Of a stretch of DNA of 64,000 nucleotides, positions 9,676-63,998 are shown piece after piece. Position 1 is the stretch's first letter. The number at the start of each line of letters is the position of its first letter. Source of the DNA: Candidatus Latescibacterota bacterium (GTDB taxonomy: Bacteria; Latescibacterota; UBA2968; UBA8231); contig OZ242005.1 of the NCBI GenBank assembly GCA_965204725.1, positions 3,392,001 through 3,456,000 on the forward strand, in the 5' to 3' direction. Made by a program: the position numbers and the translations under genes. The notes beneath the pieces are model-generated. The model saw nothing but the letters and a program-made list of their open reading frames with translations, had not been told where the DNA came from and made no database searches.

Positions 9676-9800
9676 TTGCTTCGCGTTGCACCGACACGTA
9701 CTCTGCCGGTCTCGTGGGCAGAGTTCTTTGCAGCCGCCGGATTGAAAGGACATATCGCATTTTTTATTCACTTCAACATCATACTTAGGAGGAGATCGAC

Positions 9801-10583
9801 ATGAAGCTAAAAGACAGAGTGGCCCTCGTCACCGGGGGCAGCAGCGGCATTGGCCGAGCTGCGGCCGTGGCCATGGCCCGCGAAGGGGCCAAGATCGCGC
9901 TGACAGCTCGCCGCGCCGAGCGCTGTGCGGAAGCCGTAGCCGAAATCGAAGGGCTAGGCGGCCAAGCACTGGCCTTGCCCGGCGACGTGGCTAACGCCGA
10001 GCACGTAGCCGGGCTGGTCGCGGCCACGGTTGAGCGGTGGGGCCACCTCGACATCGTCGTGCCCAACGCCGGCATCAACGGAGTCTTTGCTCCCATCGAG
10101 GACATCACCCCCGAGGAGTGGGATCAGACGCACCACATCAACGTGCGCGGCACCTTCCTCTCCGTTAAATACGCCATCCCCCATCTGCGGGCGGCGGGCG
10201 GCGGCAGCATCATCGTGGTCTCCTCGGTCAACGGCAACCGCATCTTCTCCAACTTCGGCTTTACCGCGTATTCCTGCTCCAAGGCCGCGCAAGTGACCTT
10301 TGCCAAAATGGCCGCGGTCGAGCTAGCGCAGTGGGACATTCGCATCAATGTGGTCTGCCCGGGCGCGACCCAAACCAGCATCGGCGAGAACACCTTCCCC
10401 CGCGACCTCGACAAAATTCGCATCCCCCGCGAGTTCCCCCAAGGCATGATCCCCCTACAACAACGCGCCGCCAGTGCCGAGGAGGTCGCCAACGCCATTG
10501 TCTTTTTAGCCTCGGACGAGGCCAGCTACATCACGGGGACCGAGATGTACGTCGATGGGGCGCTGTCGCTGTTTCAGGGGTGA
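9801..10583 (+). CDS. SDR family oxidoreductase
   Basis: TGGSSGIG, PNAG, YSCSK. Confidence 0.93.
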   Translation: MKLKDRVALVTGGSSGIGRAAAVAMAREGAKIALTARRAERCAEAVAEIEGLGGQALALPGDVANAEHVAGLVAATVERWGHLDIVVPNAGINGVFAPIEDITPEEWDQTHHINVRGTFLSVKYAIPHLRAAGGGSIIVVSSVNGNRIFSNFGFTAYSCSKAAQVTFAKMAAVELAQWDIRINVVCPGATQTSIGENTFPRDLDKIRIPREFPQGMIPLQQRAASAEEVANAIVFLASDEASYITGTEMYVDGALSLFQG

Positions 10584-10636
10584 GAGCGTCCGCTGCACAA
10601 ACCGGAACACCACCAATCCTTACGGAGATAGACGAA

Positions 10637-13357
10637 ATGACCAATGCAAATGTTGGAATCTTGATGGTCCTACTCGTGGTGTTAAGTACTAGCCCAACTC
10701 AAGCAAGCGTCGCGGGCGAAAGCCAGTCGGTTCCTCCTTGCAGTAGAGCCGCAGCCTCGCCAGAGCAAGAGTGGTCGTCGCCGCGTCCGGCGGCCAAGCG
10801 GCTGGCAAATTTGAACGTCGGCGTACCGCGCACCGTACGGCTCATCTACTTCTTGCCCAACGACCGTCCATACCGCGCCGAAGTGGTCCATTCGATGAAA
10901 GCGATGGTTCGCCGGGTTCAGACCTTCTATGCAGAGCAGATGCAGGTGCATGGCTATGGGGATAGAACCTTCCGCTTTGAAACCGATGCCGCAGGCGAGC
11001 CGATGGTGCATCGCGTCGATGGGAGGCACTCCGATAGCTACTATCTCAACTATACGTATCGCGATGTGCGCGAAGAGCTCGATCAAGTTTTTGATCTCTG
11101 GAGTAATATTTACATCATCGTAGTTGATAATAGTATCCATGGGATTGGTTTTTGGGGTGGATTAGTGGGAGGCATTGGAATCTATACCGGCAAAAGCAAT
11201 GGTGGCTTGGGGATGTTTTCTGAAGAATCCAGCTTTATAACAATGGCCCATGAACTGGGCCATACCTTCGGATTATCGCACGATTTCAGGGATGATACGT
11301 ACATCATGTCGTATGGCCCGGGGGGACGGCTGTCGGCGTGCGCTGCCGGACTTTTGGCTGTACATCCTTACTTCGATTATGATGTCCCAACTAGCTACAT
11401 AGAGTCGCCAACCATCGAACTCATTTCACCGCGATATCCGGCCGGGTCAAACAGTGCCTCCGTCCAACTCAGAGTCCGCGATTCAGACGGGCTTCACCAA
11501 GTGACCTTATTCAATTTTACAAGAAAGCCACATTTTTCCGCTGGGGCTAAGGAAGTGAAGGCGTGTCGTAGATTGATGGGTGAAAGAGGGGCCATCGTTG
11601 AATTCGATTATGATGGCGTTGTTCCATCTGCGCCTCTTACGACGAATCTTTCTATGTCTCCCGTGCATACTATTCAGGTTGACGCCATTGATACGGATGG
11701 AGATACAAATACAGGCTATGGACTGTTTATCCTCGCGGAAATTTCGCCACATCATATCGCCACCCTTGAGGGACATGGGGGTGAGGGGTATGGGATTGCG
11801 GTAGCATTTTCGCCGGATGGGAAAACCCTCGCAACCGGATCAGAGTATGGTGCAGTTAAGCTGTGGGACGCGACCACGAAAACAAATATCGCCACCCTCG
11901 GAGCTACAGAGGGTGTCTCTTCGGTGGCGTTTTCGCCGGATGGAGCCACCCTCGCGACCGGATCGTGGAATGGTGTAGTTAAGCTGTGGGATGCGACCAC
12001 GAAAACAAATATCGCCACCCTTGAGGGGCATAGGGAGACTAGGATTGTGGTAGCGTTTTCGCCGGATGGAGCCACCCTCGCGACCGGATCACGGAGTGGC
12101 GAGGTTACGTTATGGGACGCGACCACGAAAACGAACATCGCCACCTTCGGAGCAACGGGAAGCATATCTTCGGTAGCATTTTCGCCGGATGGGATCATCC
12201 TCGCGGCCGGGGCAAGTGATGACACGATCCAACTGTGGGATGTGTCTGAGTGGGCGGCGTCCCGTACTCAAAGTCTGGTGATAACCTCCGACGATGAGCA
12301 ACAGGAGGCCGAGCAGGATACTACCACCGATGAGCAACAGGAGGCCGAGCAGGATACTACCACTAACGGGCGATCTATGACCCAGACCGTGGCTAAGGTC
12401 TCCGGCGATGGCCAAGAAGGCCCAGCCTTCACACAACTGGACGAGCCGTTTGTGGTTTCGGTGTTGGATCAAGACAGTTCACCCCTTGCCGGGGCGGTCG
12501 TCACCTTTTCGGTTGCCGTTGGCGGAGGACTGCTGTCATCTGCCAGCGACACCAATCCTTGCACCATTGCGTCCTCTACGTCTTCTACCACCGCCACTAC
12601 CGATGCCAACGGCCAAGCCGCAACCCGGCTGACGCTGGGCAGCGAGCCGGGAATGAACGCCGTGGAGGCCATCGTGGAGGGACTAAAGCCGGTGACCTTT
12701 ACCGCTACCGCCGCCGCGCAAGCAAGGCCCCATAGTCTGACGAAGCTCTGCGGCGATGGCCAAAAAGGTACGGCCTACGAACAACTCGATGAGTCGTTTG
12801 TGGTTTTACTATTGGACGAAAATGGAGCGGCGATGGCCGGGGTAGCTGTGTCGTTTTCGGTTGCCGCTGGCGGGGGGACGCTGTCGTCCACCACGGCCAC
12901 GACCAATGCCAATGGTCGTGCTGCGACCCGGCTGATGCTGGGCAGCGAGCCGGGAACGAATACCGTAGAGGCCGCCGTAGAGGGACTAGAGCCGGTGACC
13001 TTTACCGCTGTCGGGCAAGAGTCGCCCTTGGCTAGTCTTTTCGATGATTTTCTGAGTGGTAAGCTGGTAGCCCTGCCTAATAGCCCGCAGTTGGTGCAAA
13101 ACGCGCCCAATCCGTTCAACAGCCAGACGATCTTTGCCTATTTCCTGCCAGCGGCCGGTCCAGCGCGTTTAGAAGTATTCACACTGACCGGGCAACGGGT
13201 GGCGGTCTTACACCAAGGCCCGCAGCAGGCCGGCTACCACCGCCTCCGCTGGAATGGCCTCGACGACGCCGGTCGCCCCGTAGCCAGCGGCCTGTACCTA
13301 TACAGGCTCGTGACGGACGAAGTCGCATTGACACGCAAGCTCATGCTGCTGCGTTGA
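10637..13357 (+). CDS. Secreted metzincin-like protease + WD40 repeats + Ig-like (Big_1) domains + FlgD-Ig-like tail
   Basis: HELGHTFGLSH with Met-turn YIMSY; four VAFSPDG..LATGS..LWD repeats; TTDANGQA Ig-like repeats; start 10637 chosen by homology to 7003 and GGAG RBS. Confidence 0.85.
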   Translation: MTNANVGILMVLLVVLSTSPTQASVAGESQSVPPCSRAAASPEQEWSSPRPAAKRLANLNVGVPRTVRLIYFLPNDRPYRAEVVHSMKAMVRRVQTFYAEQMQVHGYGDRTFRFETDAAGEPMVHRVDGRHSDSYYLNYTYRDVREELDQVFDLWSNIYIIVVDNSIHGIGFWGGLVGGIGIYTGKSNGGLGMFSEESSFITMAHELGHTFGLSHDFRDDTYIMSYGPGGRLSACAAGLLAVHPYFDYDVPTSYIESPTIELISPRYPAGSNSASVQLRVRDSDGLHQVTLFNFTRKPHFSAGAKEVKACRRLMGERGAIVEFDYDGVVPSAPLTTNLSMSPVHTIQVDAIDTDGDTNTGYGLFILAEISPHHIATLEGHGGEGYGIAVAFSPDGKTLATGSEYGAVKLWDATTKTNIATLGATEGVSSVAFSPDGATLATGSWNGVVKLWDATTKTNIATLEGHRETRIVVAFSPDGATLATGSRSGEVTLWDATTKTNIATFGATGSISSVAFSPDGIILAAGASDDTIQLWDVSEWAASRTQSLVITSDDEQQEAEQDTTTDEQQEAEQDTTTNGRSMTQTVAKVSGDGQEGPAFTQLDEPFVVSVLDQDSSPLAGAVVTFSVAVGGGLLSSASDTNPCTIASSTSSTTATTDANGQAATRLTLGSEPGMNAVEAIVEGLKPVTFTATAAAQARPHSLTKLCGDGQKGTAYEQLDESFVVLLLDENGAAMAGVAVSFSVAAGGGTLSSTTATTNANGRAATRLMLGSEPGTNTVEAAVEGLEPVTFTAVGQESPLASLFDDFLSGKLVALPNSPQLVQNAPNPFNSQTIFAYFLPAAGPARLEVFTLTGQRVAVLHQGPQQAGYHRLRWNGLDDAGRPVASGLYLYRLVTDEVALTRKLMLLR
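12292..12363 (+). repeat. Exact 36-bp tandem duplication encoding the DEQQEAEQDTTT linker twice
   Basis: cgatgagcaacaggaggccgagcaggatactaccac x2. Confidence 0.9.
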
Positions 13358-13561: not shown

Positions 13562-14683
13562 ATGACGATACATAGACTGAAAGTCTCAGGACTGTTGTCC
13601 TTCGGGCCGCAGGGGATCGATCTGCCGATGGAACCGCTGAACGTCCTGATCGGCCCAAACGGTGCGGGAAAATCTAATCTGCTCGAAGTGCTGGCCTTGC
13701 TGAGGGCTGCGCCGCGTGAACTGGCGAGACCGATCAAGCGAGGCGGCGGAATCTGGGAATGGCTCTGGAAGGGCGACGAGTCGCCTCACAAGGCAACGAT
13801 GGAAGCCACCGTTGACGATCCCAAGAAGGACAGTCCCTTACGACACGTGCTGGAATTTACCGACCACGGTGGACGCTTTGAAGTCACTGATGAGCGCATT
13901 GAATGCGCGGAGACCAAGTTCTCCTATCGCCTTTATCAGGAATTTCACAGGCTTGGCCGCGCTACTCGTACGAGAGAAAAGCCGGAGGAGTCTGTTCTGT
14001 CTCAGGTCCGCGACGTACAAACGTATCCCGCGCTGCACTGCCTACAGGAGCAATACGAGCGCATTCGCCTGTATCGAAATTGGTCATTCGGTCCTGCGGC
14101 GGAGTTGCGCCGGAACCAGAGTACGCACGACCCCTCCGACTTCCTGAGCGAAGGAGGATCGAATTTGGCCCTCGTCCTGTCACACTTCCGGGGGGAGCAC
14201 AAGCGGAAACTCGTCGCGGCGTTGCAGGAACTCTTTGACGGCATCGTGGACGTCAACTGCCCGGTGACGGGCGGGACGGTGTCGCTTTTTTTAGAAGAAC
14301 GGGGCGGACGCGAGATTCCAGCGAGCCGCCTGTCCGACGGCACCCTGCGCTACCTGTGCCTGCTGGCCGTTCTGCTGCATCCCGAGCCGCCTTCCTTGGT
14401 CGCCATTGAGGAGCCGGAGTTGGGCCTTCATCCCGACGTCGTCGCTCAGGTTGCGGAATTGCTCGTCGATGCCGCTCAGCGCATGCAGATCGTGGTCACT
14501 ACCCACTCGCGCATGTTGGTTGACGCGCTGTCGGACCATCCGTCAAGCGTCGTAGTGTGCGAGCAGGAGAACGGCGAGTCGCGGTTCGAGCGGTTGGACA
14601 GCACGAGATTGAAAACTTGGTTGGACGAGTATAGCCTCGGCGAGCTCTGGGGTTCGGGGCAACTCGGCGGTAATCGCTGGTGA
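13562..14683 (+). CDS. AAA_21-type ABC-like ATPase (toxin/defence-associated)
   Basis: GPNGAGKSN Walker A, LSDGT signature, IEEPELGLHP, TTHS, LGELWGSGQLGG end. Confidence 0.9.
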   Translation: MTIHRLKVSGLLSFGPQGIDLPMEPLNVLIGPNGAGKSNLLEVLALLRAAPRELARPIKRGGGIWEWLWKGDESPHKATMEATVDDPKKDSPLRHVLEFTDHGGRFEVTDERIECAETKFSYRLYQEFHRLGRATRTREKPEESVLSQVRDVQTYPALHCLQEQYERIRLYRNWSFGPAAELRRNQSTHDPSDFLSEGGSNLALVLSHFRGEHKRKLVAALQELFDGIVDVNCPVTGGTVSLFLEERGGREIPASRLSDGTLRYLCLLAVLLHPEPPSLVAIEEPELGLHPDVVAQVAELLVDAAQRMQIVVTTHSRMLVDALSDHPSSVVVCEQENGESRFERLDSTRLKTWLDEYSLGELWGSGQLGGNRW

Positions 14684-21277: not shown

Positions 21278-22360
21278 ATGAAAAACACACATTTGGCAAC
21301 ACTCAAAATTAGAGATTTTCGCGGGCTATCGCGCCTCGATCTCAATGGCTTGGGAACGTTCAACATCTTGCTGGGCGCAAACGACGTGGGCAAAACTTCC
21401 ATTTTGGAAGCGATATTCCTCTTGTCGGGTTCTGCCAATATGCAACTGCCCCTGCAAATACAGCAGACCTTTCGCAATTATGGGGTTCGCGAATTAGCCG
21501 ATTTATCCGCTCTCTTTCACAAACTCGACTTCGACCAACGCATAACATTGGAGGCGCGTTATTGTGATTCCACGAAGCTAACCTTGGCTATATCGGCTCC
21601 GCACGAATCCCTTGCCACCAAAATACAGAGCGAGGTGCCGCCGAGTGATCCCTCATCTTCTTCGGTTTCCTCTGGCCAGCGCTACTTGCGCTACGATGGG
21701 ACGGTGCAGAAAGCCGCGCAACAAAAGCCGTTACCGTTTTCCGGCGAACTGATTGAACGCGGCGACAATCTCGAACTGACCAAAATGCCGGATGCCCTCG
21801 CCAACGATTTGACTGCCGCTAGTTTTATCGGCGCACGATTTCAATACAATAGCAGTGTCATCGGCGAGGTAATAGTCGAAAAAAAGAAAGACGCGCTTCT
21901 TCGCTATCTACGGATCATCAACCCCCGCGTGGAGGAAATCGCGGTACGTGGGGACAAAGCCTATTTGGACATCGGATTGAAGAAAATGATGCCGCTGAAT
22001 ATGTTCGGCAGTGGCATGATCCGCGCCGCAACTATTCTCTCGCTATCCATTTTAAGGGCCGAACAAATTCTCCTCATCGACGAGCTCGAAAATGGCCTTC
22101 ACTATAAGGCCATTCCGCCGCTCCTAAAGACACTCCTCAAATTTTCCAGCGAGCAGCACTTGCAGATTTTTGTCACCACGCACAGCCACGAAATCCTCAA
22201 AGCACTGAAGGATGTGCTGAGCTTGCCCGAATTTTCCGGTTATCGGCAGACGACAAACTGCTATGTATTGCAGAGAGACAAAAGCGGATTGGTGCATTCC
22301 TATAAGTACGAGTACCGTCAATATGAGCACACCATTGAGTACGATATAGAGATCAGGTGA
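21278..22360 (+). CDS. AAA_15/AAA_21-type ATPase
   Basis: GANDVGKTS, FGSG signature, LIDELENGLH, TTHS. Confidence 0.88.
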   Translation: MKNTHLATLKIRDFRGLSRLDLNGLGTFNILLGANDVGKTSILEAIFLLSGSANMQLPLQIQQTFRNYGVRELADLSALFHKLDFDQRITLEARYCDSTKLTLAISAPHESLATKIQSEVPPSDPSSSSVSSGQRYLRYDGTVQKAAQQKPLPFSGELIERGDNLELTKMPDALANDLTAASFIGARFQYNSSVIGEVIVEKKKDALLRYLRIINPRVEEIAVRGDKAYLDIGLKKMMPLNMFGSGMIRAATILSLSILRAEQILLIDELENGLHYKAIPPLLKTLLKFSSEQHLQIFVTTHSHEILKALKDVLSLPEFSGYRQTTNCYVLQRDKSGLVHSYKYEYRQYEHTIEYDIEIR

Positions 22361-22917
22361 TGAGTAGCCAATGGCAGATATTCGTCGAAGGACCGGACGA
22401 TCGAGCCTTCCTCAAGGACCTGTTACAACACCTGAACATTGCCAACGTCAACACGTCTATCATCGGCGGCGGCGTGGCGAAACTTCCCAACATTGCCAAT
22501 GAAATACAACGTGCTTACGATGCGGGCAAACGCATCGCTATCGTACTGGACGCGAACTCCAATTTCGCGAGTCGGTGTGCCGAGTTTGCGACACAGAAAG
22601 CAAGCCTCAAACTTCCAATTGACCGCTTCTTCCTCCTGCCAAACAACAAAGACTCCGGGAGCCTTGAGACCCTGCTCGAAGCGATGGCCATCTCCACTCA
22701 TCGCGTCGTGTACGACTGCTTTGACCAGTACAAAACCTGTTTACAAGACCGCAACACGCCATATAAACTTCCCAATCACAAGGCGCGAATTTATGCTTAC
22801 TGCGAAGCTCTCGGCCTTGAGACCCGTGCAAGTAAGCGGGAATATGTGAATTCATCGTATTGGAATCTGGACGCACCCGATCTGGAACCGCTGAAAACGT
22901 TTCTTTGTGCCCTGTAA
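22357..22917 (+). CDS. DUF3226-like TOPRIM-fold protein
   Basis: IFVEGPDD, IVLDAN, FLLPNN..GSLETLL; GTGA overlap with the ATPase. Confidence 0.75.
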   Translation: MMSSQWQIFVEGPDDRAFLKDLLQHLNIANVNTSIIGGGVAKLPNIANEIQRAYDAGKRIAIVLDANSNFASRCAEFATQKASLKLPIDRFFLLPNNKDSGSLETLLEAMAISTHRVVYDCFDQYKTCLQDRNTPYKLPNHKARIYAYCEALGLETRASKREYVNSSYWNLDAPDLEPLKTFLCAL

Positions 22918-41919: not shown

Positions 41920-42031
41920 TTCAATGAGATTTTTTTAGAATAGGGGCGGTCTGATCCCAGATATAGTTAGTGAGACATTTCGCCATATGAGAAAACAACA
42001 TCAAATAGCCTAACATAGAAAGGAAATCGAC

Positions 42032-42454
42032 ATGCCAATACCACTATTTCTTGTCGGATTAGCTAAAACGGCAGCCATGACATTAGCCTCCTCTGCTGCT
42101 AACAAACTCGTAGAGGAACTTATGAATGAGCCATCTGATGAAGAAATCCAAGAGTTACTCGAAGAAACTAGGAGGCAACTCGAAGATGAACAGCGAAAAC
42201 GTAAAAAGCAAGTAATAGCAATAGGAGTGGTGTGTTTCCTCCTAGGAGGCTTAGTAGCCAGTTCAGGCACTTGGTACGCCCTTCAATCTAGTCAATCTAG
42301 TGAACAGATAATTGCACTTGAGGAACTCGAGAAGTACGAAAAGGCGCGGGATGCAGGTCTCCAAGCTCTAGAATATTATGTCATTCAAAATCCCAACAGT
42401 CCGTACATTTCCCAAGCAAAAGATTTAATTCGAGCTTATAAAGGTAAGGAGTAA
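42032..42454 (+). CDS. Small membrane-anchored hypothetical protein (AT-rich)
   Basis: GAAAGGAA RBS; central TM; NPNSPYISQAK tail. Confidence 0.7.
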   Translation: MPIPLFLVGLAKTAAMTLASSAANKLVEELMNEPSDEEIQELLEETRRQLEDEQRKRKKQVIAIGVVCFLLGGLVASSGTWYALQSSQSSEQIIALEELEKYEKARDAGLQALEYYVIQNPNSPYISQAKDLIRAYKGKE

Positions 42455-42457
42455 CTC

Positions 42458-43315
42458 ATGCGCTATATTTTTTTCCTTCTCTCTATAGCAGGCTGTATAA
42501 GTCTGGCAGCCTGTAGTGATGAGGACGAGAAGGCACGGCTCTTAGAGGGAATAAAAAAAAGATCGGCATTGAATAACTCTCTAAAGGAAGAGATAATCCA
42601 ATCCGAGAGCGACATAGCCGCTTTGGAGGCTATGAACGACAGTCTGAGTAAATCTGGGGAACTTCTCTTGGTGAAGAACAATCAGCTCCGCAAGGAAGTG
42701 GAGAACGCCGAGCAAGAGGCCAACAAATACCGCCGACACAATGAGCACTTGCAAGAGAAGGTTAGCCAACTACAGAAGGAGACTGACCAACTACAGAAGG
42801 ATAAGCGTACCAACGAACGGGAAATCCGCAGACTAGCTGTTAAGATAGACAGTATTTCCGTAGATCGGGACCTCCTAATAGGCGTCAATCAAGACTTAAA
42901 AAATAAACTAAACGAGATTAGGGAGACTCACAACGCACTCCACAGGATTCGGAAATCGGTACGTCTCCTAGTAGGTACTGAGAGTCTTCTCAAAAGCAAT
43001 CGCTTTCTCAAGACGAGCCGCAATGCGATGCTGCGCAAACAGTACAAACTGGTTAAAAAGCTCGAAGGCGACGACTCCCGGGTCAAAATTGTGCCCCTCA
43101 ATCAGCAATTGGACTTGACCCTAAATTCAGCTCCAGAAGCCCTAGTTGGTAGTTCTGGCAAGCTTAAACTAAAAGCACTGGTTGACCGTTCTGGCAAGCT
43201 CAAGGAAGATCGCGATTACATAGTCGATAAAAGTAGAGGTACTACAATCATTACCTTTATAAATCCCGTTTTAGAAGGGACGGATGTATTGGCCGTGGTC
43301 GAGGTCGAAGATTGA
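42458..43315 (+). CDS. Coiled-coil lipoprotein
   Basis: AAGGAG RBS; LAAC lipobox; long heptad region and beta-rich C-terminus. Confidence 0.75.
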   Translation: MRYIFFLLSIAGCISLAACSDEDEKARLLEGIKKRSALNNSLKEEIIQSESDIAALEAMNDSLSKSGELLLVKNNQLRKEVENAEQEANKYRRHNEHLQEKVSQLQKETDQLQKDKRTNEREIRRLAVKIDSISVDRDLLIGVNQDLKNKLNEIRETHNALHRIRKSVRLLVGTESLLKSNRFLKTSRNAMLRKQYKLVKKLEGDDSRVKIVPLNQQLDLTLNSAPEALVGSSGKLKLKALVDRSGKLKEDRDYIVDKSRGTTIITFINPVLEGTDVLAVVEVED

Positions 43316-43346
43316 GGGAATTATACCCAGCGAGGACTTGGACCCT

Positions 43347-43691
43347 ATGAATGCCATTGAAACCCAGATCAACAACGCTACCATTGAGGCCATAGCGCGA
43401 CTGATCGTCGAACGCTTTGAGCCGGAACAAGTCATTCTCTTCGGCAGTCACGCCTGCGGAGAGGGGGGATCGCATAGCGATGTGGACCTGCTGGTCGTGC
43501 TTCGCACCGGCACAGAAAAACTACCGCCCGGCAATCCAATCCGTCGAGCGATTGCCGAGCGTTTCGTCCTGCCCGTTGATGTCCTTATCCGCTCGCCGGA
43601 AGTTCTCGCCGAACAGCGCAATGACCCATATTCCTTGATGCACCAAGTGCTAAAAGAGGGAAAGGTATTGTATGAGCGGCACGTTGCCTGA
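43347..43691 (+). CDS. Minimal nucleotidyltransferase (MNT antitoxin)
   Basis: ILFGS.A.G...SDVDLLVV, PVDVL, EGKVLYE. Confidence 0.88.
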   Translation: MNAIETQINNATIEAIARLIVERFEPEQVILFGSHACGEGGSHSDVDLLVVLRTGTEKLPPGNPIRRAIAERFVLPVDVLIRSPEVLAEQRNDPYSLMHQVLKEGKVLYERHVA

Positions 43692-43773
43692 ACGGGACTG
43701 GTTCGATAAGGCAAATCAAGATTTGGAGATGGCGCGTCGGGCGTTGGGTCCGAAAACACCTTCTCATCTATGA
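43672..43773 (+). pseudogene. Truncated HEPN toxin (33 codons)
   Basis: Overlaps the MNT end; reads MSGTLPERDWFDKANQDLEMARRAL.., a HEPN-type N-terminal helix, then stops. Confidence 0.65.
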
Positions 43774-43799
43774 CCTAATGAAAATGAAGAGAGGCTGTT

Positions 43800-44714
43800 T
43801 TGCGTAGAATCATACAGATCGTCTCGGCAGGCATCCACAAGGTGGGCGTCTTCCTTGTAGAAAAAGTCAGCACGATCCAGTATATTGTATTTTTCGCTGC
43901 GGTAGTCATAGTTTTCGGGATTCTTTATACCTATCTGACCCCAATAGGGCACGGTATTGGGCAAAATCTCAAGCCGCTTTCTGACATTGCATTTCTCACA
44001 GGCATATACTTCAGTATTGTCACGATCTCCTCGTTAGGGTACGGTGACATGCACCCGATGGGGTTCTCAAAAGCTCTCGCCTGTATAGAAGTCCTCCTAG
44101 GACTCGTAGTGATAGGCATTATGATAGCTAAAGTTACTTCGCGACGTCCGTCATACCATGTTGAACGTCTTTTCAGTTCCGATGCTCAAAAACGACTTGA
44201 ACATTTTGCTACAGAATTCGTGGCGTTTCACGGAAATTTTGAAACAATTATTTCGGACTTTGGGGACGCCTATCAGAGAATTCCTGGCAAACCACCCCCT
44301 GCCGACAAGAGCACATTGATCGCACGTTTCCAAGAAATTATCACTGCATTCCAATCACAATGTACTGAGTTGCATTCCTACTTCTTAGATGAGACTGATC
44401 AGGGGAACTACTTCGAGATCGTCCCAGCTATTGCAATGGTGCAAGTAGGTAATGCCGTTGACGGTGCTTTCTTTAGACTTAGTCAACTTCTTATAAATCT
44501 GTCACCGCAAGCGAAAATTGAAGTTCTTGATAGGCGTAGCAGACAGGGGATTGCAAGGGCAATCGACGCCCAGATAAAGGCATGTGATTTAGTTGATCAA
44601 TATGCGACTGATCAGGGTACACGCGATGTATTCCGGCGCATTCAAGATATTTGTAGTAGGTTGCCAGAAAGTTATTTCGCAGAAGTATCGCAACCCGACC
44701 AACTCCCACAATGA
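43800..44714 (+). CDS. Two-TM potassium channel family protein with unknown helical C-terminal domain
   Basis: IYFSIVTISSLGYGDMHP pore and filter flanked by TMs. Confidence 0.8.
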   Translation: MRRIIQIVSAGIHKVGVFLVEKVSTIQYIVFFAAVVIVFGILYTYLTPIGHGIGQNLKPLSDIAFLTGIYFSIVTISSLGYGDMHPMGFSKALACIEVLLGLVVIGIMIAKVTSRRPSYHVERLFSSDAQKRLEHFATEFVAFHGNFETIISDFGDAYQRIPGKPPPADKSTLIARFQEIITAFQSQCTELHSYFLDETDQGNYFEIVPAIAMVQVGNAVDGAFFRLSQLLINLSPQAKIEVLDRRSRQGIARAIDAQIKACDLVDQYATDQGTRDVFRRIQDICSRLPESYFAEVSQPDQLPQ

Positions 44715-44750
44715 TCCTGACGAGTCGCAATAACTTTAAGGAGGTGTAAG

Positions 44751-45140
44751 ATGAACGAACAGCTTCTTCATGGACACGAATTGTCGCTAGAGCTGGAATG
44801 GATGAGATGCTGGGGCGATGTCTGGTGCAATCTCAACCTTGTAAACCTAAACCATGAGTATTTCCACAAGGACGTCTCTGGCGTCTATATAATTTGGCAC
44901 GGAGGACCAGACCCCAAGGTGGTGTACGTCGGTCAGGGAAATATCAGGGATCGCATAGCCGAACACCGGAACGATCCAGAGATACAGCGATATGATTCTC
45001 TAGAGCTTTATGTCACTTGGGCACCAGTACCCAAGGAATACCAAGACGGTGCAGAAGCGTCCTTGGCTAAGCGATGGTCTCCAATAGTCGGCGAACGCTA
45101 TCCAGACGCCCTGCCCATAAAGGTAAACTCTCCGTGGTAG
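44751..45140 (+). CDS. Small GIY-YIG nuclease family protein
   Basis: GVYII...VYVGQG..RDRI..H, later conserved E; AAGGAGG RBS. Confidence 0.78.
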   Translation: MNEQLLHGHELSLELEWMRCWGDVWCNLNLVNLNHEYFHKDVSGVYIIWHGGPDPKVVYVGQGNIRDRIAEHRNDPEIQRYDSLELYVTWAPVPKEYQDGAEASLAKRWSPIVGERYPDALPIKVNSPW

Positions 45141-56998: not shown

Positions 56999-57700
56999 CT
57001 AGCCGATACTGCCTAGGGCAGCGGCGAAGGAAAGCCAAACAATCGTTATGATACCAACTCCAGCGTAGGCTTTGCGGCGATCAAACTGCCCGATAATAGA
57101 CAGGCCGAGACCAGTGATTACAACGCTCCAAACGACAAAGGGATCAATGAGAGACAATAAGTGCCCACTGAAGCTTCGGAGAGCCTCTTCGGAGAGGAAC
57201 ACCCCCAAGCCTATTTGCACTAGCGGTGTCTCTGTGGCCAATATTAGCAATGTCTTGACAATATGTTGGGGGATATTTATCAACCCCGCATAGACTACTA
57301 TGGTTAGGACTTGTCCGTAGGAGAGCAGGCCGCCTAGTAATTTACCCACCAGTAGGCAAAGCGCGGCAAATATAAAAATAAAAACGAAAAGCACAATAGG
57401 TGTAACGATCAGAGTACTAGCCTGCATGATGCCTTGGGTTCGGTATTGCTCCACTATCTTGCGCTCTTCGTCGGATATGCCCTGCATCCGTTGCTGCATG
57501 ACTTCTCGGTTGAATTCAGCCGTAAAGGGCAGGATAAGCACAGCGGCAATCGTGGCAACTACAACGTTCAAAGTAGCAGGCACAAGCCAGTCGGCAGCAC
57601 TGCGCTTGCGGGCGAGGGATTCAAAGGTTTCTCTCGGCGTGTAGAAGAGGCGAATCATGCGGTTGATGAGGCCGATTTCGGCTTGGGATGTAGGTTCCAT
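56999..57700 (-). CDS. Yip1 family membrane protein
   Basis: LFYTPRETFESL, five TMs, IDPFVVWSVV..GLGLS; AAGGAGG RBS. Confidence 0.85.
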   Translation of the reverse strand: MEPTSQAEIGLINRMIRLFYTPRETFESLARKRSAADWLVPATLNVVVATIAAVLILPFTAEFNREVMQQRMQGISDEERKIVEQYRTQGIMQASTLIVTPIVLFVFIFIFAALCLLVGKLLGGLLSYGQVLTIVVYAGLINIPQHIVKTLLILATETPLVQIGLGVFLSEEALRSFSGHLLSLIDPFVVWSVVITGLGLSIIGQFDRRKAYAGVGIITIVWLSFAAALGSIG

Positions 57701-57824: not shown

Positions 57825-58628
57825 TTAAGGTTGAGCTGGTATAAAGGCTGATAGCTCCAGAGCCAAAACTGACATATTGCGTATAAAGTGGTATATAATG
57901 GAAGGATAAAGGGAGCGTGTTCCCTGATACAAAAAAAACGAAAGACTCTGTGTCATAAACGTAACGATAAATTCCCTTAGATGTTCCTCTGAAAACGGAG
58001 AGTAATGGTGGTAGCTGAAGATGAACGCGGTAATAGTGAAACCGAGAACGAACCCCAATCGATTTCTCAAAGCAGGGAATATCAGGCCGGTAAAATATGC
58101 CTCCTCTATAACAGGGGCAATCAGTAAAACGCGAACTGAGTGTGGAATGATAAGGAGAAATATAGTACGAGATTTTTCGTCCCAGTCGGCTTCCTCAGTC
58201 CAAGGTGTTAGAATGGGATTGGGATTTATTAAGTGGATATCAATTCCCTGGAGCTTCATGTAAAGGAAAAAGGCCAATACACTTACTCCGGATATCAACA
58301 ATAAAAAGTTAAATTTTAAAACGAACTTTTTTGATTCTCTGGGAATTTGAATGGACAATCCCAGTGTTTGGGTGTTTAGATCCTGTTTTTCTATTTTGGA
58401 GAATGCTACGACAACCAAAATAAGTAGAACATAAGGAATAGTACATAATAATACGAGAAGGTAGTCGCTCAAAGCGAATAGATTAAGTATAGTATCGACA
58501 GTATAGCGAAAGAAAAAGAACATAAAAATGGCTAGTAGAAAGGTAGAAAACATTCTACATCGTATATTTTCAAACTTTCTGGTAAATACGGAATAAATGT
58601 ATTGGTCCATTGTATGGATTTTTTTCAT
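57825..58628 (-). CDS. CPBP (CAAX/Abi) family intramembrane glutamic endopeptidase
   Basis: APVIEEAYF.G, FSYHH, SLYPSIIYHFIRN; start 58628 preferred because 58709 would read through a hairpin. Confidence 0.82.
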   Translation of the reverse strand: MKKIHTMDQYIYSVFTRKFENIRCRMFSTFLLAIFMFFFFRYTVDTILNLFALSDYLLVLLCTIPYVLLILVVVAFSKIEKQDLNTQTLGLSIQIPRESKKFVLKFNFLLLISGVSVLAFFLYMKLQGIDIHLINPNPILTPWTEEADWDEKSRTIFLLIIPHSVRVLLIAPVIEEAYFTGLIFPALRNRLGFVLGFTITAFIFSYHHYSPFSEEHLREFIVTFMTQSLSFFLYQGTRSLYPSIIYHFIRNMSVLALELSAFIPAQP

Positions 58629-58668
58629 GAATACACCTGCTTCTTCCATTAGTTGCTGGCGAAGACTT

Positions 58669-58704
58669 TGAGCTACCAGTCTCGATAAGGAGACTGGTAG
58701 CTCA
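58669..58704 (-). terminator. Perfect 15-bp stem-loop between precursor and CPBP genes (stabiliser/attenuator, no U-tract on the coding strand)
   Basis: TGAGCTACCAGTCTC-gataag-GAGACTGGTAGCTCA. Confidence 0.65.
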
Positions 58705-58706
58705 TC

Positions 58707-58738
58707 CATTCACCATGTAGAGGTTGTGGGTTTCATCT
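58707..58738. repeat. Arm of the inverted repeat on the 3' side of the precursor gene
   Basis: cattcaccatgtagaggttgtgggtttcatct; 26/32 identical to the reverse complement of 59079-59110. Confidence 0.85.
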
Positions 58739-58781
58739 AGGTTGGCTTCTTACTGATTTTGTTTGTTGTTTTTCAGGCTTC

Positions 58782-59054
58782 TTACGGATTGCGGGCGTAT
58801 GATGCTTCTCGGTCTTGCCTTGAAGACTCTAGGGTACCGTAGAGGGCCATCGCAGCAGCTGTGAGGGCGACGTCAGCCGCTAAAGCAATTCCTATTATTG
58901 CCCAAGGAATAGCTCCCCCTTTGATATCTCGAGCTTCAGAAGACGTAATAGGTTTTGAAACGATCTCACTGTTGCTCGGTGCGATACTATAGGCGCACAA
59001 ACCCAAGGCTGTCGCCAGAGCTGTTACACCTTTAGTTTTGATAAGTTTAGTCAT
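58782..59054 (-). CDS. Double-glycine (GG) leader precursor peptide, bacteriocin/RiPP-like
   Basis: ITSSEARDIKGG|AIPWAIIGIALAADVALTAAAMALYG...; strong GAAAGGAG RBS; adjacent C39 peptidase. Confidence 0.8.
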   Translation of the reverse strand: MTKLIKTKGVTALATALGLCAYSIAPSNSEIVSKPITSSEARDIKGGAIPWAIIGIALAADVALTAAAMALYGTLESSRQDREASYARNP

Positions 59055-59078
59055 GATGTTCTCCTTTCTTTAGGAAGA

Positions 59079-59110
59079 AGATGACAACCCTTACCTCCAC
59101 ATGGTGAATG
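59079..59110. repeat. Arm of the inverted repeat on the 5' side of the precursor gene
   Basis: agatgacaacccttacctccacatggtgaatg; reverse complement cattcaccatgtggaggtaagggttgtcatct. Confidence 0.85.
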
Positions 59111-59112
59111 TT

Positions 59113-59658
59113 TTATTTTTTTGTCAATATCAAAATCTCTCCTTTCCATATACGATTGAATGCCCCTTTTCCAATTCTGAGCCTGCCAATGGCTGGATCT
59201 CTCAAGATGACCTCACCATGTTCATCGATTCGGTCTAACACCGCAAAGTGATCATCCTCAATAAAGACCACTGCCGGAAGCGGTTTGCTTTCTAGGTCAT
59301 CTATATTTAGTCTCCAAGCTTCAGCATGTACTCCTTGACTTTCGGCGTATTTCATCAGGTCGAATAAGGAAGAACCTGTCTCGTCCAGTCTAATCATGTC
59401 TTCAATATCTGTAAGATCTTGGTCTATACCTAGGCTATCCAAAACCATTTTAAGAGCTACAGGACCACAATTCATTTTACGTGTCTGTAGAATGACTCCT
59501 TCTGTCCCTTCGTATTCCGCACCTTTCAACCATGCCGCCAAGTTACGGTATATGGTTTCACTCGTAATGGATACGGCGACTAATTGCAAGCTAGAAGCAA
59601 AAAAGATGACTAATACTATTGCCGCTCCAATCGTTAATTTACTTTTCCAAAGCGTCAT
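59113..59658 (-). CDS. Stand-alone C39 cysteine peptidase with N-terminal membrane anchor
   Basis: QTRKMNCGPVAL, GSSLFDL, HFAVL, DPAIG; no ABC domains. Confidence 0.9.
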   Translation of the reverse strand: MTLWKSKLTIGAAIVLVIFFASSLQLVAVSITSETIYRNLAAWLKGAEYEGTEGVILQTRKMNCGPVALKMVLDSLGIDQDLTDIEDMIRLDETGSSLFDLMKYAESQGVHAEAWRLNIDDLESKPLPAVVFIEDDHFAVLDRIDEHGEVILRDPAIGRLRIGKGAFNRIWKGEILILTKK

Positions 59659-59676
59659 ACTTGATATAAATTATTA

Positions 59677-62226
59677 CTATCCTTTTGCGAAGGTATCGTC
59701 TGTGATATTACACTGTAGTGCTGGTTCCTGAACAGTCTTTATCTTTTCTTCGACTCGATTAGCATAGTCATACATATCTATTCCGACGAAAATTTTTGAT
59801 GCCATCATCCACAAAGCAATAGCTTTTGCTTTTGACTCTTTTTGGGCAGCCACATCTCCCATACCTGTATAGGCAAGTCCTTGTCCTAGTTCGTCACCTA
59901 TCCTTTTGCATATAGACAGAGCTCTACCATAACAAGCTTCAGCTTCACTCCATTGTCCTCTAAGCTGATGTATCTCGCCCAGACTAGCAAGTCCGTAGGC
60001 GGATCCCTTTTCGTCATCCTCAGCTTCGTATATCCCCAGTGCAGTCCTCTGCTCTTGGTACGCGTCTTCATATTGTCCGCATTGGATATATACGAGACTT
60101 AAAGTAGTTCGGGCTGTAGCAATAGCTTGCTGATTAGGCGAGTCTGGAGTAAGGCGTAGGTAATCGCATAAGAATTCCTTGGCTTTATCAAATTTTTTAC
60201 TATGAGCATACAATTTTCCGAGAGATAAATAGCACTCATTCACATCGGATGACATACCTATACGTTCAAATAGACCTATCGAGTGATGCAGGTAGGATTC
60301 TGCCAGAGGGAAATCTCCGCGATAGAAATGTACATTCGCTAGTATTTTATATGAGTACGCTTTTCCCTTTTCATCCGCCAAGCTTTGGTTAGCCTCTAAG
60401 GCAGCTTTGCCGTACTCTAGTGCTTTTTCCATATTTCCCATTAGAAGGTGTATCGAAGAAAATAATCCATAATGTAATGCCAATCCCTCTTTTCTATTCG
60501 CCTTTTTGTCTATATCAATAGCCTGTTCCAGTAGAGTATGTGCTTCGTAAATACGGCCTTGGATTTTTCTCAAATTTGCAAGCGAATTGTACTGGTTAGC
60601 AATCCCCTCGGAGTCTCCGATTTCTTTGTAAATAGCTAAAGATTCCTCGTAAAGTTTCTCTGCTGAATTCAAGTCGTCTTTTAGAAGATGCACAGTACCC
60701 AAGTTGCTAGTAACTAAGGCATAATCTTCTCGACAACTTATTTTTTTGTGAAGACTCTGTGCTTTTATATAAAAATCCTCAGCTTCGGCGAGATTTCCTT
60801 GTAGCTGCGTGATAAATCCTTTGCAGGTATATCCTACAGCTAGCTTCCTCTTACTTTTATCATCCCCAGTTTGTGAAAAAATTGATATGGCCTCATCATA
60901 GCATTGACTCGCCTTATCTAATTCGCCTTTCAGCTCGCAAACCTTACCTTGGGAGATCAGTATGTTAGCCAATCCTGTAGTTGTTCCACCCCGAAGCCGA
61001 TTAACTTCTTTGGCCAATTCGATTTGAGATAAGGCAGATTCTAGACGACCGTTCTGCCAGTGCTCGTCAGCAGAGGCTAAAATAATTTCCCATTCTTCAG
61101 GATCACCTTGCTGATCAACCCGTTTGGCTACCTCGCTTTCAGTAGGGCTAAATTTGCAATGAGTAGGAAGCTCGGTCTCTAGGTTGAGCTGTGGGAGCAC
61201 ATCCAAGACCTCTTGATACTCTTTCCTGTCTGTTGCAGAGATCGTTCGATAGATATGGTCAAATTCAATCAGACTGTCTATAACTGACTCCTCTGGAAGA
61301 AAAGGATTAGGCCACAGATGCGCCCACCAGAAGTGGATCAGACGCACCAAGGGATCGCTATGTTTGCAGGCTATGTACTCAACCGCGGCGTATCGCTTCA
61401 CGCTTTCTGCTTTTGCCTTCTCAGGATCGGAGAAATTATGAGGATGGTACAGGTGATAAGAAGAGGCTTGGACACTGATAAATTGTCCACCTGTCGCCCC
61501 TAGGCGGTAGCCAAGTTCCCACCCTTCACAGAAAGGTATGGCATCATCGAATCCCCCTACTTTTTCTAGCAGCTTTAACGGTATGGCCATATTGTGAGGG
61601 TATAACCCAATCCAGCCTAGGGCCGGTTCTGCGACAGTTTCGTAAAGATCGTGAAATTCTCTCTGTATAGTACGGACTTCTTCAAACGGATAGCCTCCTT
61701 CCACTGCTTTTTCGATAATACTATCGAACTCATTGCACACCATACTCTCTGTGACAATCATCTTATCTCGATGTAGAGCCAAGAACCGGCGCAGTGAATA
61801 AGGCAGTGAGGTATCGAAAGGTGAACCTGTCTGAGGATCTTGGAAATACTCTAGGTCGGGAAGGACATATTGACAGCCACATAATACTGATTTCTGACCA
61901 TTCTCTTTATAGGCTTCTAAGTAGCACTGGAGTAGTTCCGGGGCTGGTAGTGCATCTCCATCTAGGAAAACGACTAATGAACCGCATGCTCGCTCAACCC
62001 CTCTATTTCGTGCTCGACACCGGCCCTGATTCGTTTCAAAATATTCAACTTTGAGATTGTGCATCTTCAGTGATTCTAGCATTGCTCCAGTGCCGTCGGT
62101 AGAACCGTCGTCAACCACTATTACTTCAAAACGATCACTTGGAATATTCTGATTTTCTAAGCCACTTAACACGAGACGGAGGCGTTCTTTCTGGTTATAC
62201 GTGGCTACGATTACACTTGTATCCAT
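59677..62226 (-). CDS. GT2 glycosyltransferase with long C-terminal TPR array
   Basis: SVIVATYN, VVDDGSTD, ARNRG, FLDGD, VGGFD, HLYH; about 10 TPRs; TAATG coupling to the upstream gene. Confidence 0.9.
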   Translation of the reverse strand: MDTSVIVATYNQKERLRLVLSGLENQNIPSDRFEVIVVDDGSTDGTGAMLESLKMHNLKVEYFETNQGRCRARNRGVERACGSLVVFLDGDALPAPELLQCYLEAYKENGQKSVLCGCQYVLPDLEYFQDPQTGSPFDTSLPYSLRRFLALHRDKMIVTESMVCNEFDSIIEKAVEGGYPFEEVRTIQREFHDLYETVAEPALGWIGLYPHNMAIPLKLLEKVGGFDDAIPFCEGWELGYRLGATGGQFISVQASSYHLYHPHNFSDPEKAKAESVKRYAAVEYIACKHSDPLVRLIHFWWAHLWPNPFLPEESVIDSLIEFDHIYRTISATDRKEYQEVLDVLPQLNLETELPTHCKFSPTESEVAKRVDQQGDPEEWEIILASADEHWQNGRLESALSQIELAKEVNRLRGGTTTGLANILISQGKVCELKGELDKASQCYDEAISIFSQTGDDKSKRKLAVGYTCKGFITQLQGNLAEAEDFYIKAQSLHKKISCREDYALVTSNLGTVHLLKDDLNSAEKLYEESLAIYKEIGDSEGIANQYNSLANLRKIQGRIYEAHTLLEQAIDIDKKANRKEGLALHYGLFSSIHLLMGNMEKALEYGKAALEANQSLADEKGKAYSYKILANVHFYRGDFPLAESYLHHSIGLFERIGMSSDVNECYLSLGKLYAHSKKFDKAKEFLCDYLRLTPDSPNQQAIATARTTLSLVYIQCGQYEDAYQEQRTALGIYEAEDDEKGSAYGLASLGEIHQLRGQWSEAEACYGRALSICKRIGDELGQGLAYTGMGDVAAQKESKAKAIALWMMASKIFVGIDMYDYANRVEEKIKTVQEPALQCNITDDTFAKG

Positions 62227-63998
62227 TATATACACTCCACCCTCAGATGATATTGGCATTTCAGATTTGGTATATAGTTCCACCCATCTTTACCTTCTAT
62301 TAGGCAGGAGGGCAGTGTCTTAGCAGAATTGGAAAACATTAGTCGTTGGTTATCTAAGTGGCCAAAATAGTAAGAATCAAAAGATCGAGTATTTCGTTTT
62401 ATGTATGTTTTTAATTTAAGATCTTCGACATTGTATTCGTTTATAGAAACTTCGCCGATAGCCATACTGAGAAATTCAACGGGTATCCAGCCTGATTCTT
62501 CTAGATAAATTTCGGCCCACGTGTGGCCTACCATAGGCTCGTCTATACTTCTGTATTCGTACACCTGTCCAGAAATTGGAAATCCCAACAAGGTTCCACA
62601 TCTCTCTCTAGCAGGAATACCGACCATTCTACACAGAGCTATAAAGGTTCTCGCAAAGTGAATACAATTGCCACCGATGTTATTCAGCAAAATAGCCGAA
62701 CTATCGGCCAGACCCACCGCAGGTATCTTAGTCTTCCTGAATTTTTTAGTTCTGATTAGTTTGCTGTAGAAGGCCCAAGCCAGTTCTTTTTTATCGCAAG
62801 GCGCGGATGCTTCGAGTATCTCGGAGAGCACTTGCTCCAGTTCTGGCAGTTTGTCTAAGACCTCGTCGGTATATAAATACTTCGACCTCTCCCAGTCCGA
62901 GAGGGTGTGTTCGCCTCTACCTTCAGCATTATACTCGCTGACTTCAAGTTCGCAAGTATATGAAAAATTTGCCGAATTTGATTTTACAGTGAAGGGATAT
63001 GCATAGAAGAATCCAAACTTGCTGCGTAAACAGTATTTCATATTCTCTGGGAAACAGTCGATTAGACTAACGGCCTTTTGGTCTTCTGTCTCCAAAGGAT
63101 ATGGTATAAAAGCTCTTAACTGGTGATCCGGTTTTTCAGTGAGATGTATGTCGTAGGAGTAGGTCATTTTATAACGCTGGGTATGAGATTTTGAACGTAT
63201 GTTACCTGTTTCATCTATATCGAAAAAGACACGTCGTCTTTGATCGCAGGCCTTGTATTCAGCCTCAAAAAATCGAGCCTCTCTTTCGTATAGCCAGTTC
63301 CAAGAGTCTATTCTATCGAAGAAATACTGATTGCCCTGTCGCCAGTGAGGTATCCCTTTTTTAATACCTTGCCTTAGCATTTCACGCAGCGATTCAATTG
63401 ATAGGGTGGAAGGAGTAGTACCGTCGAGTTGCTGTAAGAATTCATTTTCACCTACCAGAAATTTAGGATCGTAACGGAGTGCCGTATAACGGTTTAAAAA
63501 ATAATCATCCACCCAGTCTGCTACTACGTCTTTTTCACACCATCGCTTCAATAAATTGGCAATAGAATCCAACTGAATCTCCATTTTATCCCAGACATCT
63601 AGAGTTCTCCCTAGTATTTGTGTAATATTGTGATAATTAAATCTATCCGGATCTATTTTCAGACCTAAACTAACCGCTTCGAGTCTATCGAGATGGAGAT
63701 CCTGATCTAAAGTGGTTGCTATACCGATAGGCAAAACTCCATGAAGTAAAGCACTATATAGGGTCTCTATATCTAAATCTCCAATTATTATATGTATTCT
63801 TTCCCATGGCGGATCTCTATAGATTTCATCGACAAACTCTATGTGGCTTTCAGGTCGCTTTACTCCTCGGGTAGATTCTACTAGTAAGCGATAAGGGATC
63901 TCCATCCCGGATGTATTCTGTCTCAGTATATCTTCTTTTAGAAGATTTCTGGGATCTTTTATATAGACGACAGGAAATGACTTATCCTGTTTGCGAAG
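62226..63998 (-). CDS. Multidomain transglutaminase-like protein; 5'-truncated by window edge
   Basis: GNCIHFARTFIALCRMVGIPAR, GHTWAEIY...GWIPVE, YYFGHLD; frame stays open from 63905 to the window end. Confidence 0.85.
   Translation of the reverse strand, partial: LRKQDKSFPVVYIKDPRNLLKEDILRQNTSGMEIPYRLLVESTRGVKRPESHIEFVDEIYRDPPWERIHIIIGDLDIETLYSALLHGVLPIGIATTLDQDLHLDRLEAVSLGLKIDPDRFNYHNITQILGRTLDVWDKMEIQLDSIANLLKRWCEKDVVADWVDDYFLNRYTALRYDPKFLVGENEFLQQLDGTTPSTLSIESLREMLRQGIKKGIPHWRQGNQYFFDRIDSWNWLYEREARFFEAEYKACDQRRRVFFDIDETGNIRSKSHTQRYKMTYSYDIHLTEKPDHQLRAFIPYPLETEDQKAVSLIDCFPENMKYCLRSKFGFFYAYPFTVKSNSANFSYTCELEVSEYNAEGRGEHTLSDWERSKYLYTDEVLDKLPELEQVLSEILEASAPCDKKELAWAFYSKLIRTKKFRKTKIPAVGLADSSAILLNNIGGNCIHFARTFIALCRMVGIPARERCGTLLGFPISGQVYEYRSIDEPMVGHTWAEIYLEESGWIPVEFLSMAIGEVSINEYNVEDLKLKTYIKRNTRSFDSYYFGHLDNQRLMFSNSAKTLPSCLIEGKDGWNYIPNLKCQYHLRVECI

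Follow-up and report, generated by a model that had tools for sequence, protein, structure and literature searches.

The question raised by this locus is why the gene of a small peptide, flanked in its operon by a protease gene on one side and an immunity-like gene on the other, is enclosed by two sequences that are able to pair with each other. The locus belongs to a 64,000-nt stretch of contig OZ242005.1 (positions 3,392,001 to 3,456,000) in the assembly GCA_965204725.1 of a Candidatus Latescibacterota bacterium, called the window throughout, and comprises a standalone peptidase C39 gene, a putative precursor gene of 90 codons and a CPBP/Rce1-like membrane protease gene, with one 32-nt arm on each side of the precursor gene. 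A first-pass annotation, made from the sequence alone, had read the arms either as an RNA stem looping the precursor gene out of the message or as DNA sites for inversion or exchange of precursor cassettes. We favour, at a probability of about 0.55, the reading that the arms form a long-range stem in the messenger RNA (mRNA) which, together with a hairpin on its 3' side, would mark the precursor cistron for processing or protection; that the arms pair as a selected RNA feature at all is clearly the more probable part, and we consider it likely.

The repeat search of the window recovered the arm pair as an imperfect inverted repeat of 32 nt, with 81% complementarity and 340 nt between the arms, in agreement with the repeat that the first-pass annotation had described around the precursor gene. 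On the minus-strand sequence the 5' arm begins 2 nt past the stop codon of the C39 gene (59115-59113), and the conserved core of the arm begins 4 nt past it; the ribosome-binding site (RBS) and the open reading frame (ORF) of the precursor lie wholly inside the 340-nt loop, both placements being as annotated earlier. RNA folding of 58660-59125(-) also reproduced the proposed layout of the stem, viz. 18 pairs including one G-U, a 2x3 internal loop, 5 pairs, a 1-nt bulge and 6 pairs. The minimum free energy (MFE) of this segment is −162.6 kcal/mol (z = −8.0), a value equalled by 0/100 shuffles. When the 18-mer of the arm was searched with up to three mismatches, two matches were obtained in the window, a number reached by 0/100 shuffles, and in the whole 5.43-Mb genome the sole matches were the two arm sites. 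Since these are the only two copies in the genome, and in view of the shuffle result, the arm is neither a chance occurrence nor a member of a dispersed repeat or repeat family.

The six-gene island around the stem is syntenic in two congeneric Latescibacterota metagenome-assembled genomes (G007 and G027) and in a 9-kb contig binned as Candidatus Poribacteria; their DNA identity to the window is 81-90%, and all three carry the 32-nt repeat. In a four-way alignment of these low-GC loci, 59 of the 64 columns in the arms show no difference between the four sequences, which is well above the background: a 20-nt coding window mostly reaches 10-17/20, and the core-peptide region 9-12/20. One pair of the G007 arm is changed from U-A to U-G, which is a wobble pairing in the mRNA sense alone, and an A of the internal loop is replaced by G in G007 and in the Poribacteria contig. 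No compensatory change was found among the four low-GC loci, which display conservation only. As a C39 homologue is present in just 1 of the 176 Poribacteria genomes searched, the Poribacteria-binned copy was either passed on horizontally from one sponge symbiont to another or sits on a mis-binned contig.

More distant relatives came from a C39 protein search of 168 genomes in the phylum. It added four standalone C39 genes, which belong to another genus of the same family, with 59% (G078), 48% (G076), 46% (G075) and 45% (G079) identity, while the remaining 17 matches were weak (28-33% identity), lay within open frames of 478-1248 aa and were not standalone. The four distant loci have a GC content of 52-58% over the region examined, as against 43%, and their CPBP proteins share 35-43% identity with that of the window (35-38% in G075, G076 and G079). 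G078 retains the whole island; G075, G076 and G079 have just the C39 gene, a small ORF of 86-93 aa and the CPBP gene, and the leaders of the distant loci end in KGG, KGA, NGA or KGS. These four high-GC loci, together with the window, G007, G027 and the Poribacteria contig (low-GC), form the set of eight loci on which the following comparisons are based.

A 12-bp core, TTCACCRTGTGG / CCACAYGGTGAA, is retained in all eight loci that combine a standalone C39 gene, a small peptide gene with a Gly-Gly-type cleavage motif and a CPBP gene. The untranslated regions (UTRs) of the distant loci can be aligned to the window at three spots only, namely the 5' core TTCACCRTGTGG, which sits past the C39 stop, its complement CCACAYGGTGAA, which sits before a hairpin, and the RBS with the start codon. 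The repeat search recovers the inverted repeat in three of these four loci (L057, L058 and L060), and in L059 it is visible in the sequence. The core outlasts a GC shift of ~15 points and heavy protein divergence, through which the neighbouring untranslated sequence is lost. Its geometry is also fixed in the eight loci: the distance from the C39 stop to the 5' core is 4-7 nt, from the core to the RBS 32-36 nt and from the ORF stop to the 3' core 20-63 nt, the loop between the cores measures 327-382 nt, and a hairpin of 14-21 bp follows 0-5 nt past the 3' core. This constant geometry would place the stem beyond the reach of ribosomes translating the precursor ORF.

The pairs of the core were then scored individually across the eight sequences, and standard pairs are found in 96 of 96 cells (12 pairs x 8 sequences). 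Nine of the 12 pairs never vary. One pair is altered on both sides, being A-U in five loci and G-C in three (G075, G076 and G079), and two changes are one-sided, one from G-C to G-U in G078 and the other a G-U in the four low-GC loci vs a G-C in the other four. Every wobble of the core is a G-U on the mRNA strand, which corresponds to a C-A mismatch on the opposite strand, and no A-C pair occurs in the mRNA sense. The earlier claim that a coding-strand wobble favours an RNA role thus gains support from the G-C/G-U changes, which pair in the mRNA sense only, and the comparison of homologous loci for covariation, which had been suggested along with it, yields a stem kept in all eight with one compensatory pair and two G-C/G-U changes. 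The adjacent hairpin has 7 of its 11 pairs altered on both sides across the eight loci; as judged from the alignment, this covariation shows RNA-level selection on the same strand and at the same spot. When the 3' partners were slid by 1-3 columns, the paired cells of stem and hairpin together dropped from 97% to 35-47%.

The low-GC loci have stems of 18+5+6 pairs, in which the extension beyond the core runs inward with an internal loop and a bulge; in G079 the extension runs outward, as CCU/AGG across a U-U mismatch. Such lineage-specific extensions would be expected if selection acts on the stability of the helix and not on an unchanging DNA site. The partition function, calculated for segments of ~420-470 nt, gave a mean pairing probability of 0.92-1.00 for the core stem in all eight ensembles. 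The part of the earlier reading that proposed RNA pairing on the coding strand is supported by these values and by the presence of the pairing in every locus; the part that proposed DNA inversion or a cassette is not, as discussed below. The RBS is paired with a UCUUC tract stacked on the stem in three of the eight predicted folds, all from low-GC loci, and is largely unpaired in the Poribacteria contig, G075 and G076 (probability of being unpaired 0.43-0.89 at three or four of its four bases); in G078 it is ~0.3 unpaired at three bases, with MFE partners distant from the stem, and in G079 it is half open.

The perfect hairpin that follows the 3' arm was absent from the description in the first-pass annotation. 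It is without a U-tract and has no match to a terminator consensus; Rfam returned no match across 58300-59400 at E up to 1, and no promoter consensus was found at the locus on either strand. A third arm-like copy, CTTCGCCA, lies just past the hairpin of the window at 58655-58665. The corresponding copy in G027 (L029 ~4390-4400), also after the hairpin, reads ATTCACCA; G000 and G007 have a weaker version, and in the remaining loci it is weak or missing. By local pairing with the GGTGAA in the 3' arm, this copy could lengthen the hairpin. A 14-nt imperfect complement of the outer 5' arm (59101-59114) was also seen at 58547-58560, within the sequence that encodes CPBP. Where G027 has a C-to-T change at the first position of the arm, it also has a G-to-A change in this complement, a non-synonymous one (Met to Ile); this match is probably a coincidence.

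In the favoured reading, the arms would pair in the polycistronic minus-strand mRNA, and the duplex would close the loop holding the RBS and the precursor ORF; with the GC-rich hairpin directly after the duplex, stem and hairpin would make a separate structural unit of the precursor cistron. A cut within the duplex or next to it, made by RNase III or by a single-strand endonuclease, would release a discrete message of ~450 nt, and an internal promoter combined with stalling at the hairpin could be an alternative route to the same RNA. The genome holds an RNase III gene (PF14622 match of 127.8 bits in a 274-aa open frame). The released RNA would have a base-paired 5' end and a 3' end capped by duplex and hairpin, and it is proposed to outlast the enzyme-coding parts of the transcript for this reason. 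Segmental processing or protection, giving more or longer-lived precursor message than enzyme message, is the most economical function for such an arrangement. The analysis demonstrates the repeat with its genomic uniqueness, conservation, covariation and constant geometry; the formation of the stem in vivo, its cleavage or protection and a resulting excess of precursor are what we infer from it.

Several observations weigh against this reading. Cleavage by RNase III requires a duplex of about two helical turns (~20 bp), and the stems of the four high-GC loci, with 12-14 contiguous pairs (15/16 with one mismatch in G079), are short for this enzyme. The covariation of the long stem is thin, because its events are few, comprising one compensatory and two wobble changes, and the loci are related; all three events are RNA-compatible, and in addition the outermost pair is lost in G027, where C-G became U-U. 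The nine invariant core pairs are neutral on pairing and would fit a sequence-specific site present in two inverted copies equally well. A ribosome halted at the C39 stop, 4-7 nt upstream, would melt the stem, so that the end of C39 translation would unwind it in the unprocessed transcript. A conserved sequestration of the RBS was considered and rejected, as the RBS is paired in just three of the eight predicted ensembles.

The behaviour of the 3' arm outside complete loci is a further difficulty. Two orphan CPBP genes (L049 in G009, ~9055-9965; L050 at a second G007 site, ~9170-10131), with 66-72% aa identity, lie in ~1 kb of low-GC DNA amid high-GC surroundings. They retain the outer 3' arm (17/17 and 16/17 nt) and the hairpin with compensatory changes, and both are without the inner arm through a common 9-nt deletion. 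No significant 5' partner was found up to 1.5 kb upstream of either (p = 0.15 and 0.53 vs shuffled arms). As the orphans keep a lone 3' arm, this arm seems to be constrained without the stem, and it may have a second role, perhaps in the expression of the CPBP gene; no consistent alternative partner for it was found downstream of the hairpin (p = 0.04-0.85, 10 loci). A decayed 3' remnant of a precursor ORF stands upstream of the arm of the G009 orphan and reads through the arm to a TGA, and beside the G007 orphan lie pieces of a Yip1 gene together with a high-GC gene that is truncated. The homology of the orphans had seemed to begin at the arm, and a role of the arm as a recombination junction was dropped in view of the G009 precursor remnant and the common 9-nt deletion. 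A 16-mer arm pattern searched in 76 genomes of the family occurred at 18 places in 13 genomes, nine of which, in five genomes (G000, G007, G009, G027 and G076), are real arms; the other nine are lone matches in high-GC coding DNA with no hairpin. Viral contigs gave 18 lone arm matches and 0 paired ones, and JGI metagenome contigs gave nothing by precursor alignment or by the arm-plus-hairpin pattern.

Among the rival explanations, the stem may gate rather than stabilise, the closed stem holding the precursor message, or the read-through into the CPBP gene, in one state, and a ribosome terminating at the C39 stop melting it and coupling precursor expression to protease translation. The position of the 5' core, inside the expected footprint of a terminating ribosome in all eight loci, the hydrophobic, membrane-like core of the peptide and the pairing of the RBS in three folds agree with gating; since the sequestration of the RBS is not conserved across the eight ensembles, the 3' arm has no consistent alternative partner and neither an antisense RNA nor a switch element was identified, gating is considered unlikely. 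Its precedent is the fold-back of the hok mRNA, in which long-distance 5'-3' pairing closes and stabilises a small-peptide message (PMC9841398). By analogy with hok, the stem could lock the message of a membrane-active peptide within its operon, and the closed, end-paired form of this message would be stored and stable. Such a lock would be opened only by ribosomes finishing the protease gene, as the stem base is so close to the C39 stop in every locus. If this doubtful proposal were true, the peptide would be made only where the processing protease and, via read-through, the immunity protein are made, and the fold-back logic of type I toxin mRNAs would have been moved into a bacteriocin-like operon.

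It is about equally improbable that each arm is a sequence-specific protein-binding site, in DNA or RNA, present in two inverted copies of which the complementarity is a by-product. Invariance at 9 of 12 core positions while the flanking proteins are just 35-59% identical is what such a site would show, and the lone 3' arm kept in the two partnerless orphans points the same way. However, the low-GC island contains no regulator gene, and the arms have no promoter of the sigma-70 type. In addition, the differences between the two copies are of the G-U type solely in the mRNA sense, the arm extensions are lineage-specific and contain indels, and the spacing of the cores (327-382 nt) shows no helical phasing.

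The DNA-level alternative of the first-pass annotation, in which the arms are sites for site-specific inversion, i.e. a phase-variable switch, or for the exchange of precursor cassettes, found no support, there being one orientation, no nearby recombinase and no extra copies, and it is rated very unlikely. Inverted repeats of 12-32 bp around ~340 bp do fit the sizes of invertible segments, and of the 23 runs considered, 20 of which hold part or all of the stretch and all as assembled contigs, X14 has contigs ending at 58725 and 58727, where the arm likeness stops, and the low-depth run X12 has pieces ending at 59112, 59043 and 58689. The orientation is nevertheless the same in all eight loci and in both spanning contigs (runs X4 and X8), no inversion joints were seen in four runs, as judged from assembled contigs, which drop rare variants, and the X14 contig beginning at 58727 crosses the 5' arm unbroken. 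The two X14 ends stand back to back in the 3' arm, and strain variation, low depth (~6.7) or a rare rearrangement could explain them. Exchange of cassettes is further opposed by the leader between the arms, which is conserved, the core peptide alone being variable. The statement that the window has no recombinase is borne out by a Pfam scan, which detected none among 49 non-overlapping ORFs of at least 110 aa, and a reading by eye alone of the ORFs of 100 aa or more revealed none in the next 9 kb beyond the window. The genome is 94% complete; it encodes three tyrosine recombinases, of which the nearest is ~285 kb from the locus, and 0 serine recombinases.

It is most improbable that the repeat is a functionless relic, left by a mobile element (a miniature inverted-repeat transposable element, MITE, or the terminal inverted repeats of a transposon) or by an inverted duplication of long ago: the arms do resemble each other as two copies of a sequence would after divergence and small indels, but the genome has only two copies, by which a repeat family or MITE is rejected, there is no visible target-site duplication next to the arms, the flanks (ATAAAA before the repeat and GATGAG after it) being different, and the core persists where the surrounding UTR is lost.

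The features of the locus are collected in Table 1.

Table 1. Positions of the stem, the hairpin and the surrounding genes in the window
Feature	Position	Strand	Basis or remark
5' arm of long-range stem	59079..59110	(-)	Inverted-repeat search, RNA fold
3' arm of long-range stem	58707..58738	(-)	Inverted-repeat search, RNA fold
Conserved 12-nt 5' core TTCACCATGTGG	59108-59097	(-)	Invariant or compensated in 8/8 loci
Conserved 12-nt 3' core CTACATGGTGAA	58720-58709	(-)	Invariant or compensated in 8/8 loci
Hairpin, 15 bp, 6-nt loop, 100% complementary	58669..58704	(-)	Begins 2 nt after 3' arm
RBS of precursor ORF, GGAG	59064-59061	(-)	Minus-strand sequence
Precursor ORF, 90 aa	58782..59054	(-)	Conserved leader ending DIKGG, hypervariable hydrophobic core, conserved tail; no Pfam family
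Standalone peptidase C39, 181 aa, hydrophobic N-terminus	59113..59658	(-)	PF03412, E 5.5e-28
CPBP/Rce1-like membrane protease gene	57825..58709	(-)	PF02517, E 5.9e-13
Yip1-domain membrane protein, last gene of low-GC island	56999..57700	(-)	Pfam scan; syntenic in 4 genomes
GT2 glycosyltransferase fused to TPR repeats	59677-62283	(-)	Pfam scan; synteny
Transglutaminase-like protein	62226-63905	(-)	Pfam scan; synteny

The small ORF has nine precursor homologues with 55-96% identity. Its leader is nearly invariant up to DIKGG, a motif kept in 10 of 10 close homologues, and the tail SYARNP is conserved, the segment after the GG being hydrophobic, membrane-like and hypervariable; going by conservation, this is the pattern of a double-glycine-leader precursor. 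A C39 domain and a GG/GA/GS site behind a conserved leader, as expected of this class, are both present. The C39 domain is not fused to an ABC exporter, and no ABC transporter was found in the low-GC island by Pfam scan and ORF reading. A signal-peptide-like hydrophobic stretch precedes the long leader ending in GG. The hydrophobic N-termini of both the precursor and the standalone C39 protein, in the absence of an ABC exporter from the island, suggest that the cleavage at GG may take place outside the cytoplasm, which would be unusual among C39 systems. The products of the GT2-TPR and transglutaminase-like genes may modify the peptide.

The CPBP protein presumably belongs to the group whose members act as immunity proteins in bacteriocin loci. 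The true start of its gene is likely the ATG at 58628 rather than the start of the ORF: tblastn matches begin at residues 21-38 in five of the six relatives searched, and in the four-way alignment the conservation that follows the 3' arm and hairpin picks up again at ~58640. With this start, the 3' arm and the hairpin would be intergenic.

The GC content of the window is ~60%, falling to ~42% from ~57000 to the window end; the low-GC stretch continues for just ~700 nt past the window, where the next ORFs resemble type II topoisomerase subunits (translations read by eye), and every gene of the low-GC island is on the minus strand. Counted from 56999 through the first 700 nt of L009, beyond the window, the island has seven genes. 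The runs that contain the stretch include sponge metagenomes, and no RNA run is listed among them. Further low-GC patches were seen at 42000-45100, 21278-22917 and 13562-14683 of the window and, beyond it, at L009 4968-7758. One patch encodes a nucleotidyltransferase, an ion-channel-like protein and coiled-coil ORFs, and another encodes AAA_15/AAA_21 ATPases, one of them beside a DUF3226 gene (defence-like); the L009 patch has a 594-aa ORF resembling a DNA methyltransferase (from its translation only) next to a 348-aa ORF. At 10331-13357 lies the gene of a eukaryote-like repeat protein of 1008 aa, which carries WD40 beta-propeller repeats.

In an operon for a ribosomal peptide, the substrate peptide has to be produced in large excess over the enzymes, and few RNA devices are known for that purpose. 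A stem looping out a whole translated cistron would, if true, be a compact and transferable way of setting stoichiometry within an operon, and this stem has been kept, in sponge-associated bacteria that are uncultivated, while much of the sequence around it turned over. The 12-mer pair with the hairpin also makes a practical search signature for the unstudied standalone C39/peptide/CPBP module. Searches of open-access text did not find a conserved stem that loops out a whole translated bacteriocin-like precursor cistron, nor anything relevant on repeats that flank bacteriocin or lantibiotic precursor genes, and a search on Latescibacteria, sponges and bacteriocins was equally fruitless.

Long-range processing stems and 5'-3' pairing of bacterial mRNAs are both known, and the locus can be compared with several such systems. 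With invertons it shares short inverted repeats around a segment of a few hundred bp, and it differs from them in its single orientation, the lack of a nearby invertase and of any genomic serine recombinase, and a wobble pattern that points to RNA. In the icaR mRNA of Staphylococcus aureus, pairing of the 5' and 3' UTRs hides the RBS and lowers expression, with RNase III involved; two UTRs of one bacterial mRNA would likewise pair here, but the RBS stands 32-36 nt inside the loop. Hairpins follow the structural genes of lantibiotics, and here too the precursor gene is separated from the next gene by a hairpin. RNase III processing stems bracket ribosomal RNAs and some phage or operon messages; as in these, flanking sequences pair at long range, the stem base would mark both RNA ends and the enzyme is encoded in the genome, whereas the unit here is the translated mRNA of a 90-aa peptide within a biosynthetic operon and half of the loci have only 12-14 contiguous pairs.

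The hok and related type I toxin mRNAs (PMC9841398) resemble this locus in that 5'-3' pairing closes a message of a few hundred nt for a small hydrophobic peptide. The closed form of hok is stable, a property that is inferred for the present stem; the present unit differs in its place inside an operon, between the protease gene and the immunity-like gene, in its cleavable Gly-Gly-type leader, in RBS hiding that is not conserved and in that no antisense antitoxin was found. In the microcin C operon, an RNA structure beside mccA gives rise to a short, abundant and stable precursor transcript (PMC4231749) and lifts the precursor over the enzyme messages, as the stem and hairpin are suggested to do here. 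The mccA structure is a ribosome-controlled intrinsic terminator, and mccA is the first gene, whereas the hairpin described here is without a U-tract and the precursor gene is internal and bracketed on both sides.

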